13,768 nt of DNA from a virus. Its lineage: Duplodnaviria > Heunggongvirae > Uroviricota > Caudoviricetes > Schitoviridae. Under the pieces are notes generated by a model. That model was not told the origin of the DNA, made no database searches, and saw only the letters and a list, made by a program, of their open reading frames with translations. The DNA is taken from IMG/VR virus record IMGVR_UViG_3300047463_000135, positions 64,001-77,768 of that record; one strand, written 5' to 3'. Made by a program: the position numbers and the translations under genes. How positions within the stretch are numbered: position 1 is the first letter of the stretch; each line of letters opens with the position of its first letter. Positions 11,868 through 13,768 of this stretch are shown here, in pieces.

Positions 11868-12543
11868 CTACTACCTCCGCTTCAATAATTCTAGCTGCAG
11901 CCATCTCACCTGCATTCCAGTGTTTATCTTCAATAGATTTAACCTGTACTTCTGCAAGTTTACCAATAGCAGCGTACAACTCTTTAATGGAGTCAGTCTC
12001 TTGTAAACCAACATTAAGATTAACTTGCTTCTCTTCTGGTGGCTTAAGATGAATCATTAATGAGTTAGCAGCATCACTCTGTACCTTCTCACTAGCTGCA
12101 TTATTCATTAACCAATACTGTCTATTGATTGCCTCTTGAAACTTATCTTGATTAAGTACATGAGTAGGAATAACTGCCTGAGCATAAACCAAGTTAACAA
12201 GCTTACTCTTGTTATACATAGCTACATGAGCAGACATGGTTTGTGCTGTCTTACCACTCTGTACCCATTGTTGAAACTTCTGAGGAAAGGTAAGTGAATA
12301 AGCATCCATGTTGTTATAACCCATGAGCTTATAAGACACATACATAACTGCATTCATATAACTAGATAACTTGAACTTACCTTCTGCTAATACCCGGTTA
12401 TAAGAGATCATGTTCTCCCTGAATGTCTCTCTAAAGTCTGGATCAGTAATGATAGAGTTCAATTCATTAACAAGAGTATCTGATACACCTCCTTGTACAG
12501 AAGGAGGAAGAGCATTAATGATTTCTTCTTTAGTGAGACTCAT
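11860..12543 (-). CDS. N4 gp69-like protein, putative terminase small subunit (~227 aa; start probably 12543 rather than 12549)
   Basis: Immediately upstream of terL and overlapping it by 8 nt. LTKEEI..ALP and YM.AV.YVSYKLMG motifs. The GAGGT SD is 8 nt from the ATG at 12543 but only 2 nt from the ATG at 12549. TerS function is inferred from position. Confidence 0.75.
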   Translation of the reverse strand: MSLTKEEIINALPPSVQGGVSDTLVNELNSIITDPDFRETFRENMISYNRVLAEGKFKLSSYMNAVMYVSYKLMGYNNMDAYSLTFPQKFQQWVQSGKTAQTMSAHVAMYNKSKLVNLVYAQAVIPTHVLNQDKFQEAINRQYWLMNNAASEKVQSDAANSLMIHLKPPEEKQVNLNVGLQETDSIKELYAAIGKLAEVQVKSIEDKHWNAGEMAAARIIEAEVVDV

Positions 12544-12724
12544 GATCATCTACCTCTAATGTATGTGTGAACTTAACAGGACCACCATAAACATAAGCAT
12601 ATGGTAACTGTAGATATAACTTACAAGATGCGTGTGCTTCTTTCGCAAGCTCTAAACCAAGGGATAAAGCTTTAGGAACAATACTTATCGTATGACCTTT
12701 CACATGTAATGACTTAATTTCCAT
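12530..12724 (-). CDS. Small hypothetical protein, 64 aa, first gene of the late cluster
   Basis: Co-oriented with and overlapping the start of the gp69-like gene. Only a weak SD (AGAG). Fills otherwise unexplained sequence. Confidence 0.5.
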   Translation of the reverse strand: MEIKSLHVKGHTISIVPKALSLGLELAKEAHASCKLYLQLPYAYVYGGPVKFTHTLEVDDHESH

Positions 12725-12928
12725 AAGGGTTACTCTATAAATAATATATGAGCATAGGATATAGGTAGTGTTAGGTAGAGTAAAGAAGTAAGGGAATTCA
12801 ACTTATGGCAACTTTTTCATATTTTTTATAATTAGGTATAACAGTAGGGCTACCTACTACGTCTCAACTAAAAGGTTTACCACCCCCCCTATACCTCAAG
12901 TTGTAAAAGGATTCTTACTTGTTTGTTT
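12725..12928. other. Divergent late/early junction; probable genome terminus or terminal-repeat region
   Basis: Coding strand switches here. Contains TAGGTA x3, inverted repeat AGGTATA/TATACCT, inner hairpin AGTAGG-GCTA-CCTACT, TAAAAGG x2 and a C7 run. N4-like genomes end beyond the terminase genes and begin with plus-strand early genes. Confidence 0.5.
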
Positions 12929-12948
12929 TAAGCTACGCTTATAGATGG
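12929..12948 (+). promoter_or_regulatory. N4 virion-RNA-polymerase-type hairpin promoter
   Basis: TAAGC-TAC-GCTTA (5-bp stem, 3-nt loop). The template strand loop reads C-GTA-G, fitting the N4 C-GDA-G consensus, and the core differs from recalled N4 P2 (AAGC-TCC-GCTT) only at the central loop base. It lies 35 nt upstream of the first plus-strand ORF. Confidence 0.65.
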
Positions 12949-12976
12949 AATGATCAACTAACTTAAGGAAACTATC

Positions 12977-13252
12977 ATGTCTATCCAACAACAATCTTTC
13001 ATTGGTTCATTAGCTACTCTTGGTAAGGTTGCAGCTAATACAATGACTAATGGTCTATTAACTGTAGACAACTTAGCATCAGCTACTGAACGTCTAACAT
13101 ACATAGCTAAATCTAAAGCTACTAACATAGCAGAGATCAGTGATGTACAAGACTCAATGAAGATGCTCACTGTTCGTAAAGAACTAGCAGATCAAATGAA
13201 AGCAATGAATGCATCATATGTGAATGGTGTTCTTCAATTCAATGAAGACTAA
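12977..13252 (+). CDS. First early gene, 91 aa, possibly N4 gp1-like
   Basis: AAGGA SD, first ORF after the hairpin promoter, Ala/Thr-rich amphipathic N-terminus (SFIGSLATLGKVAANTMT). The gp1 resemblance rests on recall and position only. Confidence 0.75.
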   Translation: MSIQQQSFIGSLATLGKVAANTMTNGLLTVDNLASATERLTYIAKSKATNIAEISDVQDSMKMLTVRKELADQMKAMNASYVNGVLQFNED

Positions 13253-13257
13253 ACAAT

Positions 13258-13280
13258 AGGAGCATTAGCTTGCTCCTTTA
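13258..13280 (+). terminator. Terminator-like hairpin, one state of a putative RNA switch
   Basis: AGGAGCA-TTAGCT-TGCTCCT (7-bp stem) followed by a short TTAAT tract. Confidence 0.5.
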
Positions 13281-13296
13281 ATATCAGGAGTAAGTT

Positions 13297-13365
13297 ATGT
13301 TTGAACTACAAGTCTTTGGAATACTAGTCTTGTTAATTGTATTAATCATCATGGATATGCGATAA
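13297..13365 (+). CDS. 22-aa single-pass membrane micropeptide MFELQVFGILVLLIVLIIMDMR
   Basis: Manual translation. AGGAG SD (13286-13290) 6 nt before the ATG. Its TAA stop overlaps the TAAGGA SD of the next ORF. Contains a 14-residue apolar core. Confidence 0.65.
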   Translation: MFELQVFGILVLLIVLIIMDMR

Positions 13366-13374
13366 GGAATACTT

Positions 13375-13533
13375 ATGTTTACTAATGAACAACTACATGA
13401 CATCTTGCATTTACAACTTAAGCTTAATGGCAGAGTCCATAAAGATAACTTTAGTATTGCAATGGCTATGTCTAAAGCTACTCATGCTATATGGGTAGAA
13501 AAGAAATTAATAGCTGATAAATTAGATCTTTAA
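13375..13533 (+). CDS. 52-aa hypothetical early protein MFTNEQLHDILHLQLKLNGRVHKDNFSIAMAMSKATHAIWVEKKLIADKLDL
   Basis: Manual translation. TAAGGA SD 6 nt upstream. Ends 13 nt before a strong terminator. Confidence 0.7.
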   Translation: MFTNEQLHDILHLQLKLNGRVHKDNFSIAMAMSKATHAIWVEKKLIADKLDL

Positions 13534-13546
13534 TAGCTATGTATGC

Positions 13547-13582
13547 ATGCCTTACCTTTGGGTAGGGCATACTTATTTTTTT
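13547..13582 (+). terminator. Strong intrinsic terminator closing the first early cassette
   Basis: ATGCCTTACC-TTTG-GGTAGGGCAT (10-bp stem, one G-U pair) followed by ACTTATTTTTTT. Confidence 0.85.
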
Positions 13583-13612
13583 ATACACATATTACACATT
13601 ACACATTACACA
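13583..13612. repeat. 7-bp tandem repeat TTACACA x3 plus one degenerate copy
   Basis: TTACACA at 13592, 13599 and 13606; ATACACA at 13583. Confidence 0.85.
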
Positions 13613-13740
13613 AGTAGACAGTAAGGTGCGCTAAACTATTTAAAAACTATCTGAGAAAACAGTATATTTTGTATAGCTCTACTTCAACCTATCTAATTAT
13701 TAATATATTTATTTAGCTATATAACTAATTCCATAATTCG

Positions 13741-13755
13741 CTGTACTCCGTACAG
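13741..13755 (+). promoter_or_regulatory. Second candidate virion-RNAP hairpin promoter / cruciform
   Basis: CTGTAC-TCC-GTACAG (6-bp stem). The template loop C-GGA-G equals the recalled N4 P2 loop, in the same orientation as the 12929 hairpin and preceded by an AT-rich tract. The stem and +1 region deviate from N4. Confidence 0.45.
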
Positions 13756-13768
13756 TCTTATATAAATA

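Follow-up and report, generated by a model that had tools for sequence, protein, structure and literature searches.

Control of translation by delayed folding has reportedly been described for the maturation (A) protein gene of MS2 and other Levivirus members, in work by Groeneveld in 1995 and van Meerten in 2001. In MS2 the complement lying upstream is first captured in a metastable hairpin, and translation proceeds briefly until the inhibitory pairing forms (PMC4615214). Type I toxin mRNAs offer a second precedent. Examples are hok, aapA3 with its metastable SD hairpins (PMC6733600) and timP with its structural switch (PMC13000454). In these mRNAs the SD of a small hydrophobic peptide can be masked by more than one intramolecular pairing, and which of the successive or alternative folds is present decides translation. 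In the literature searched, documented cases of such control come mostly from RNA phages and type I toxins, and no description was found for N4-like phages.

We analysed the spacer between a conserved first gene, gene 1, and a membrane-micropeptide gene in an N4-like phage. It resembles the MS2 maturation gene in two respects. The equilibrium fold has the SD bound to an upstream complement, here as the MFE in 11 of 12 loci and with covariation. This complement can also first sit in an earlier-made, mutually exclusive hairpin that leaves the SD briefly open, which is here predicted. The MS2 product is needed in low copy number. The present element differs in belonging to the mRNA of a dsDNA phage and in lying between two cistrons, 5 nt past the upstream stop codon. 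The hairpin that would hold the anti-SD strand is stable, at -11 to -16 kcal/mol, and in relatives it also stands alone; the closed form adds a pairing between the 5' arm of that hairpin and the first codons of the regulated ORF, and the kinetics are taken from nearest-neighbour energy models.

The locus and the micropeptide gene

The window, meaning the whole 13,768-nt stretch of DNA analysed, covers bases 64001-77768, one end of a virus record that is 77,768 bp long and has direct terminal repeats. In GenBank it is most closely related to three Acinetobacter phages, nACB1, VB_ApiP_XC38 (hereafter XC38) and At2, of which nACB1 and XC38 are placed on record in the Schitoviridae (N4-like). Minus-strand structural and packaging genes stop at 12549 and a small plus-strand operon then begins (Table 1). 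Homologues of gene 1 were found in nACB1, XC38, At2 and metagenomes. Its product weakly matched the profile phrog_16196 (E 1e-5) and had no Pfam match above cutoff.

Table 1. Positions of genes and RNA elements in the window
Feature	Coordinates	Strand	Description
Gene 1	12977..13252	+	91 aa, conserved first gene of the small operon; stop TAA 13250-52
Outermost 5' strand of long hairpin L	13244..13250	+	Last gene-1 codons and first stop base; pairs with 13311-13317 (MFE of 13240-13320)
Arm A, 5' arm of H1 (anti-anti-SD)	13258..13264	+	AGGAGCA; in L, 13260-65 pairs with 13297-302
H1 loop, 6 nt	13265..13270	+	In the alternative fold, 13266-70 belong to the anti-SD strand
Arm A', 3' arm of H1, anti-SD core	13271..13277	+	TGCTCCT; full anti-SD strand 13266-13277
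AU-rich linker	13278..13285	+	H1 tail and apical loop (8 nt) of L
SD, spacer and AUG	13286..13299	+	SD AGGAG 13286-90, AUG 13297-99; all base-paired in the MFE fold
Micropeptide gene	13297..13365	+	22-codon hydrophobic ORF, single predicted helix, second cistron
3' strand of outermost stem	13311..13317	+	In micropeptide codons 5-7
52-aa ORF	13375..13533	+	Third cistron, variable; in relatives the place is taken by other genes or empty
Operon-end intrinsic terminator	13547..13580	+	10-bp stem 13547-70, then T-run

A candidate phage promoter of the small operon, the motif GCTACGCT followed by TA(T/G)A, lies at 12932-12948, about 30 nt 5' of the gene-1 start. Motifs of the GCTACGCT type were also seen in relatives (L001 ~2575, L002 ~2492, L003 ~870, L008 ~2107 and L009 ~2217), where they recur 5' of the next rightward genes. 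In XC38 the gene-1 region is present at both ends of the 79,328-bp record (contig ends L005 and L006), so the operon lies inside the terminal repeat there. In the record of the window, the stretch 12900-13600 is present once only.

The slot 3' of gene 1 is a variable cassette that holds the membrane micropeptide, one of several unrelated small ORFs, or nothing. Starting from gene-1 homologues, we gathered 12 loci that carry the micropeptide, namely the window, three GenBank Acinetobacter Schitoviridae and eight metagenomic or assembly contigs. These represent a single phage clade and include close pairs. Across them the micropeptide is 21-26 aa long and hydrophobic in its core, and close to the C-terminus it carries an Asp-Met or Asp-Tyr pair. 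The pN/pS ratio was about 0.2-0.5 in 11 pairwise comparisons (pS 0.3-0.7, pN 0.1-0.36), indicating that the ORF is under purifying selection and that the gene is real. It matched nothing in Pfam or PHROGs, and its CDS is absent from the GenBank annotation in nACB1, XC38 and At2. A tblastn search against phage records returned these three Acinetobacter phages alone. An IMG/VR scan with a conserved downstream 15-mer yielded 29 loci, most of them unrelated chance matches; the micropeptide was absent from the upstream 1 kb in all 29. We discarded recoding or read-through of the gene-1 stop as a source of the peptide, because the frame of the peptide ORF relative to gene 1 varies among loci (offsets 44-56 nt).

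Further along the operon, another conserved micropeptide without annotation was seen (L001 2172-2252, L003 530-610); it is 26 aa long and has many Tyr and Trp residues. The nACB1 copy overlaps the membrane-peptide stop (TAATG), whilst the At2 copy starts a few nt past that stop. This second micropeptide is missing from XC38 and from the window, which has the 52-aa ORF instead.

Just 3' of the operon terminator, at 13584-13633, the window carries tandem TACACA-type repeats and then the exact 15-mer GACAGTAAGGTGCGC. The same arrangement was found in L001 (~2270-2320), L003 (~630-680), L031, L038, L042, L043 and L052. The layout of terminator, repeats and 15-mer is common to N4-like phages of other hosts, including Pectobacterium phage phiA41 (L052). 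Matches from Pectobacterium and Kosakonia phages cover the 13584-13633 segment, and the Pectobacterium records Horatius and Possum annotate it as repeat_region only. The segment had no Rfam match, and other IMG/VR matches to GACAGTAAGGTGCGC were mostly unrelated and due to chance. Nearer the record end, positions 13741-13757 form a perfect stem of 6 bp whose 3-nt loop reads TCC (GGA on the complementary strand), and an AT-rich stretch follows; this is the sole such hairpin in the window and is kept in every relative examined. Hairpin promoters of the N4-type virion RNA polymerase have a short stem and a 3-nt loop with a 5'G and a 3'A on the template strand (PMC4496689). The 13741-13757 hairpin fits such a promoter, which would be aimed rightwards at the record end.

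Two alternative folds and their conservation

The earlier note, made from the window alone, had described two competing structures in the spacer, and its coordinates proved exact for both. The hairpin H1 pairs 13258-64 with 13271-77 in 7 bp around a 6-nt loop. The alternative pairs 13266-77 with 13286-97 in 12 bp, 10 Watson-Crick and 2 G-U, around an 8-nt loop. As 13271-77 is common to both pairings, the folds are mutually exclusive. Arm A starts 5 nt past the gene-1 stop in the window, as had been noted, and the distance is 5-7 nt in 11 of the 12 loci.

The MFE structure (RNAfold, 13245-13310) was the downstream pairing extended by 13260-65 with 13297-302. This extension buries the whole AUG, beyond its A alone. 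The resulting long hairpin, L, folded at -19.5 kcal/mol compared with -9.65 ± 2.49 in dinucleotide shuffles (z = -3.96), and none of 200 shuffles folded as well. Folding more flanking sequence added an outer stem, 13244-50 with 13311-17. The equilibrium prediction is one long hairpin in which the SD, the spacer and the whole AUG are buried, bearing out the suggestion that one fold closes the start of what is a real, conserved hydrophobic micropeptide gene. Rfam covariance models had no match at E <= 1 on either strand of 12500-13768. In the window only, arm A reads as a perfect AGGAG and a TTG 7 nt on opens a 3-codon mini-ORF inside H1 (13270-13281). Arm A reads AGAG in relatives, and the mini-ORF is not kept there.

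Both structures recurred among relatives. H1 comprised 7-12 bp and -11.2 to -16.3 kcal/mol in the 12 loci, and L was the MFE in 11 of them. The exception was L010, in which the H1 state remains the MFE and the cognate interaction is weak. In L, the 3' arm of H1, often together with H1 loop bases, pairs with the SD, spacer and AUG, and the 5' arm pairs with the first codons. The sequences vary among lineages and the complementary strands change together. We placed main weight on alignment-free tests comparing cognate with non-cognate pairs. In chimeras of upstream and downstream halves, the cognate interaction was worth -6.7 kcal/mol against -2.7 for non-cognate pairs, a difference reached in none of 20,000 permutations. 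The duplex between the anti-SD strand and the SD-to-AUG segment averaged -14.3 kcal/mol for cognate and -9.4 for non-cognate pairs (0 of 20,000 permutations), and the cognate advantage was also present in a non-redundant subset. For arm A with the first codons, the values were -6.7 and -4.7 kcal/mol, respectively (p = 0.0007).

Alignment columns gave the same picture. In a MAFFT alignment of the 12 loci, H1 columns were 93.5% paired, compared with 33-55% for slid partners, and compensatory changes were present. Anti-SD helix columns were 82.8% paired against 40-54% when slid, with four pairs changed on both sides; the SDs of the window, L013 and XC38 are out of register and bulges shift outer anti-SD pairs, so these column counts are underestimates. 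Covariation scores for H1 and for the anti-SD helix were each above all 500 shuffles. Pairing beyond the AGGAG/CTCC core, on which the earlier note had made its proposal depend, is kept by compensatory change. Judged from these comparisons, both folds are conserved and covarying, and recurrence with covariation in 11 further loci places the pattern beyond chance.

These data also bear on whether the complementarity might be a functionless by-product of SD-like motifs and local duplication. Arm A does look like the sequence that generally surrounds start sites in these phages (ahead of gene 1, AATAGGAGTA), as that origin would predict. The covariation, however, reaches past the SD core into H1 loop bases and the spacer, and cognate pairs outperform non-cognate ones as described above. 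Moreover, relatives lacking the micropeptide retain H1 without any downstream complement. We consider a by-product very improbable.

Those relatives are six loci (class ii: L004, L014, L016, L019, L020 and L023) in which a near-invariant H1-type hairpin follows gene 1 and then a different gene. In a further locus, L018, a true terminator lies directly 3' of gene 1. Persistence of H1-type hairpins where no micropeptide follows implies a separate function for H1, linked to gene 1, and an origin as a kinetic trap need not be assumed. H1 might serve as a 3' stabiliser, as a cassette boundary or as a weak terminator such as those frequent in LUZ7. The near-invariance of the hairpin in this class suggests a recombination boundary.

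Accessibility of the start site

We next consider how far L would restrict initiation. Opening cost was taken as the energy needed to force the SD core through the AUG to be unpaired. For the micropeptide start it was 10.1 kcal/mol in the window and 7.4-13.6 in relatives, compared with 2.2-6.9 for the 11 other window genes tested. The more stable fold, burying the ribosome binding site and start codon, thus most likely limits the amount of peptide made, if the modelled energies hold.

Constrained folding over 11 loci gave modelled mean costs for other states of the mRNA. The free mRNA required 11.0 kcal/mol. A ribosome at the gene-1 stop that occluded 4 nt past the stop left the cost at 10.1, whilst occlusion of 9, 12 or 16 nt raised it to 13.7, 15.5 and 14.8 kcal/mol, respectively. 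In the model, the lock tightens when arm A is covered because the anti-SD strand is freed. A ribosome inside the peptide ORF reduced the cost to 7.2 kcal/mol. A transcript ending at AUG+3 required only 4.2 kcal/mol, and one ending at AUG+12 already 9.4. Within the model, the nascent transcript is the open condition.

Translational coupling by ribosome unwinding, as at MS2 coat-replicase and rpmI-rplT, was rejected on these values from the constrained-fold model, since occlusion 9-16 nt past the gene-1 stop raises the opening cost. The locus shares with those systems a downstream start locked by sequence near or within the preceding cistron. It differs in that the anti-SD strand lies 14-25 nt past the stop, beyond the reach of a terminating ribosome, and in that occlusion to stop+9 or stop+12 makes opening more costly.

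The earlier note had gone further and proposed that H1 is a terminator toggled by translation of gene 1. According to this idea H1 would be a leaky terminator or attenuator, with the ribosome terminating on gene 1 choosing between termination and read-through and so setting the peptide dose. The position of H1, 5-7 nt past the stop in almost all loci, is suited to such a role, and its stem is a stable, G+C-containing stem-loop as intrinsic terminators require. Weak hairpin terminators with variable read-through are also common in the N4-like phage LUZ7 (PMC9163698). The U-tract of an intrinsic terminator is however lacking. The H1 tail of the window has 4 T in 10, never more than 2 in succession, and across the 12 loci the tails have 2-5 T in 10 with longest runs of 1-3. 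By contrast, operon-end terminators of the same phages have T-rich tracts 3' of the stem (read by eye in five loci, where RNAfold paired the T-run). A simple plus-strand terminator scan did not call H1. The modelled ribosome at the stop favours the SD-closed fold and does not open the start, and read-through RNA would still be locked. The idea would also require tight coupling of ribosome and polymerase, and a phage polymerase of the fast, single-subunit type would not be expected to show it.

A comparison with trp-type attenuators (1:2 / 2:3 / 3:4) leads to the same point. As there, four consecutive segments can pair as A:A' plus A'':A''' or as A':A'' plus A:A''', and the first adjoins the stop of a translated ORF. 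Unlike there, the output is access to a start site, neither alternative fold has a U-tract, the upstream ORF is a conserved 91-aa protein gene and no sensor leader peptide, and a modelled ribosome at the stop closes the SD. Persistence of H1-type hairpins in relatives with a different downstream gene, free of any anti-SD pairing, also counts against the toggle. Control of the micropeptide by termination at H1 is quite unlikely. Of the proposed switch gating a membrane micropeptide, the two-state fold is supported and its terminator or attenuator component is not.

The type I toxin label attached to that switch fares no better. A type I toxin-antitoxin-like module would need an antisense RNA over the start site. 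The small hydrophobic peptide and an SD sequestered as in type I toxin mRNAs (PMC6733600, PMC13000454) are what such a module would show, and H1 is terminator-like on the minus strand. As to the defining antisense RNA, no sigma-70-like minus-strand promoter was found downstream facing the region, and sequence 3' of the peptide is not conserved among relatives. The gene is also a cistron within the operon of a lytic phage, which sets it apart from the known toxins, and no antisense antitoxin is evident. The early hairpin, furthermore, leaves the SD free here, in contrast to the transient hairpins of aapA3, which mask it. We regard such a module as scarcely credible. On the minus strand (13277-13258), H1 has a T-richer tail and was picked up by the simple scan as a terminator-like site; we saw no minus-strand gene converging on it.

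Proposed delayed folding and other readings

We propose that translation of the membrane micropeptide is throttled by delayed folding, as at the MS2 maturation gene, and that the spacer between gene 1 and the micropeptide is the conserved, bistable RNA element responsible. We hold this view with about as much confidence as doubt. At equilibrium L would form, with the 3' arm and loop of H1 pairing the SD, spacer and AUG, and its 5' arm pairing the start codon, the first peptide codons, or both, so that the start site is locked. On a fresh transcript, H1 would be made first and hold the anti-SD strand, leaving the start site open until the RNA refolds to L. A ribosome already on the peptide ORF would cover the partner of arm A, lowering the opening cost in the model. 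The outcome would be a limited burst of peptide from each mRNA.

The modelled energies are compatible with this order. At AUG+3 the H1 and closed states were near-isoenergetic (mean difference -1.1 kcal/mol), and 9-15 nt beyond that point the closed state was better by 5-6.5 kcal/mol. The direct-path barrier out of the H1 state (findpath) averaged about 10-14 kcal/mol, with a range of 5.8-19.8, and the reverse barrier was 14-22; these barriers are upper bounds with a wide spread. With usual Arrhenius prefactors, we estimate that the open state may last from under a second to minutes, a time range like that described for the MS2 maturation gene (PMC4615214). As the barriers are upper bounds and wide-ranging, this lifetime could be too short to matter. 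From these models we infer in which order the folds arise, how long the start stays open and that the purpose is to limit dose, and dose limitation by delayed folding is the likeliest mechanism in our analysis.

The same data could be read without any switch. Anti-SD pairing may act as a constitutive throttle, keeping a potentially harmful peptide very low via equilibrium breathing, with H1 an independent gene-1 element, its 3' stabiliser or boundary hairpin, whose 3' arm has been co-opted. The dominance of L as MFE (11 of 12 loci), an opening cost of about 11 kcal/mol in every equilibrium condition modelled, and the H1-type hairpins standing alone 3' of gene 1 in class-ii relatives all agree with this. 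Expression is said, following de Smit and van Duin, to drop about tenfold per 1.4 kcal/mol. A lock of 11 kcal/mol would nearly silence a gene that appears to be under purifying selection, which argues against a purely static throttle. Covariation of arm A with the first codons also provides a second alternative partner, beyond what simple co-option would give. A constitutive throttle is possible but rather unlikely.

Closure might instead be triggered by translation. H1 would keep the start open on fresh transcripts only, and the first ribosome to finish gene 1, standing at a stop only 5-7 nt away, would occlude the base of H1, free the anti-SD strand and cause irreversible closure into L. We consider this variant unlikely. 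We know of no described example of such logic in a dsDNA phage early operon.

Finally, the spacer may be a processing element. L or its AU-rich apical loop could be cut by a host RNase, either RNase III, as in T7 early mRNA, or RNase E, a reading to which we give a slim chance. The cut would leave gene-1 mRNA with a protective 3' hairpin and part the anti-SD strand from the SD, a consequence we hold to be equally improbable. L has 17-27 stacked pairs with bulges, and the AU-rich linker is single-stranded in both folds. Cleavage in the linker would yield H1 and a free SD, explaining why both pairings are retained. As at the T7 RNase III sites, a long imperfect hairpin lies between cistrons of a phage early operon, and cleavage would leave a 3' stabilising hairpin. 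Set against this, the linker is not distinctive by eye, and the SD here, unlike at the T7 sites, lies within the upper stem.

The element, about 60 nt long and with natural variants, adds a comparatively well-supported alternative-fold RNA, both folds of which covary, to the operons of dsDNA phages. Were closure set off by the first ribosome to complete gene 1, a single pioneer round of gene-1 translation would determine how much of a membrane-active peptide is made. The analysis also brings to light a conserved membrane micropeptide overlooked by GenBank annotation in nACB1, XC38 and At2. The strong apparent restraint of its expression suggests potency at low dose, and its candidate roles are host-membrane takeover and superinfection exclusion.
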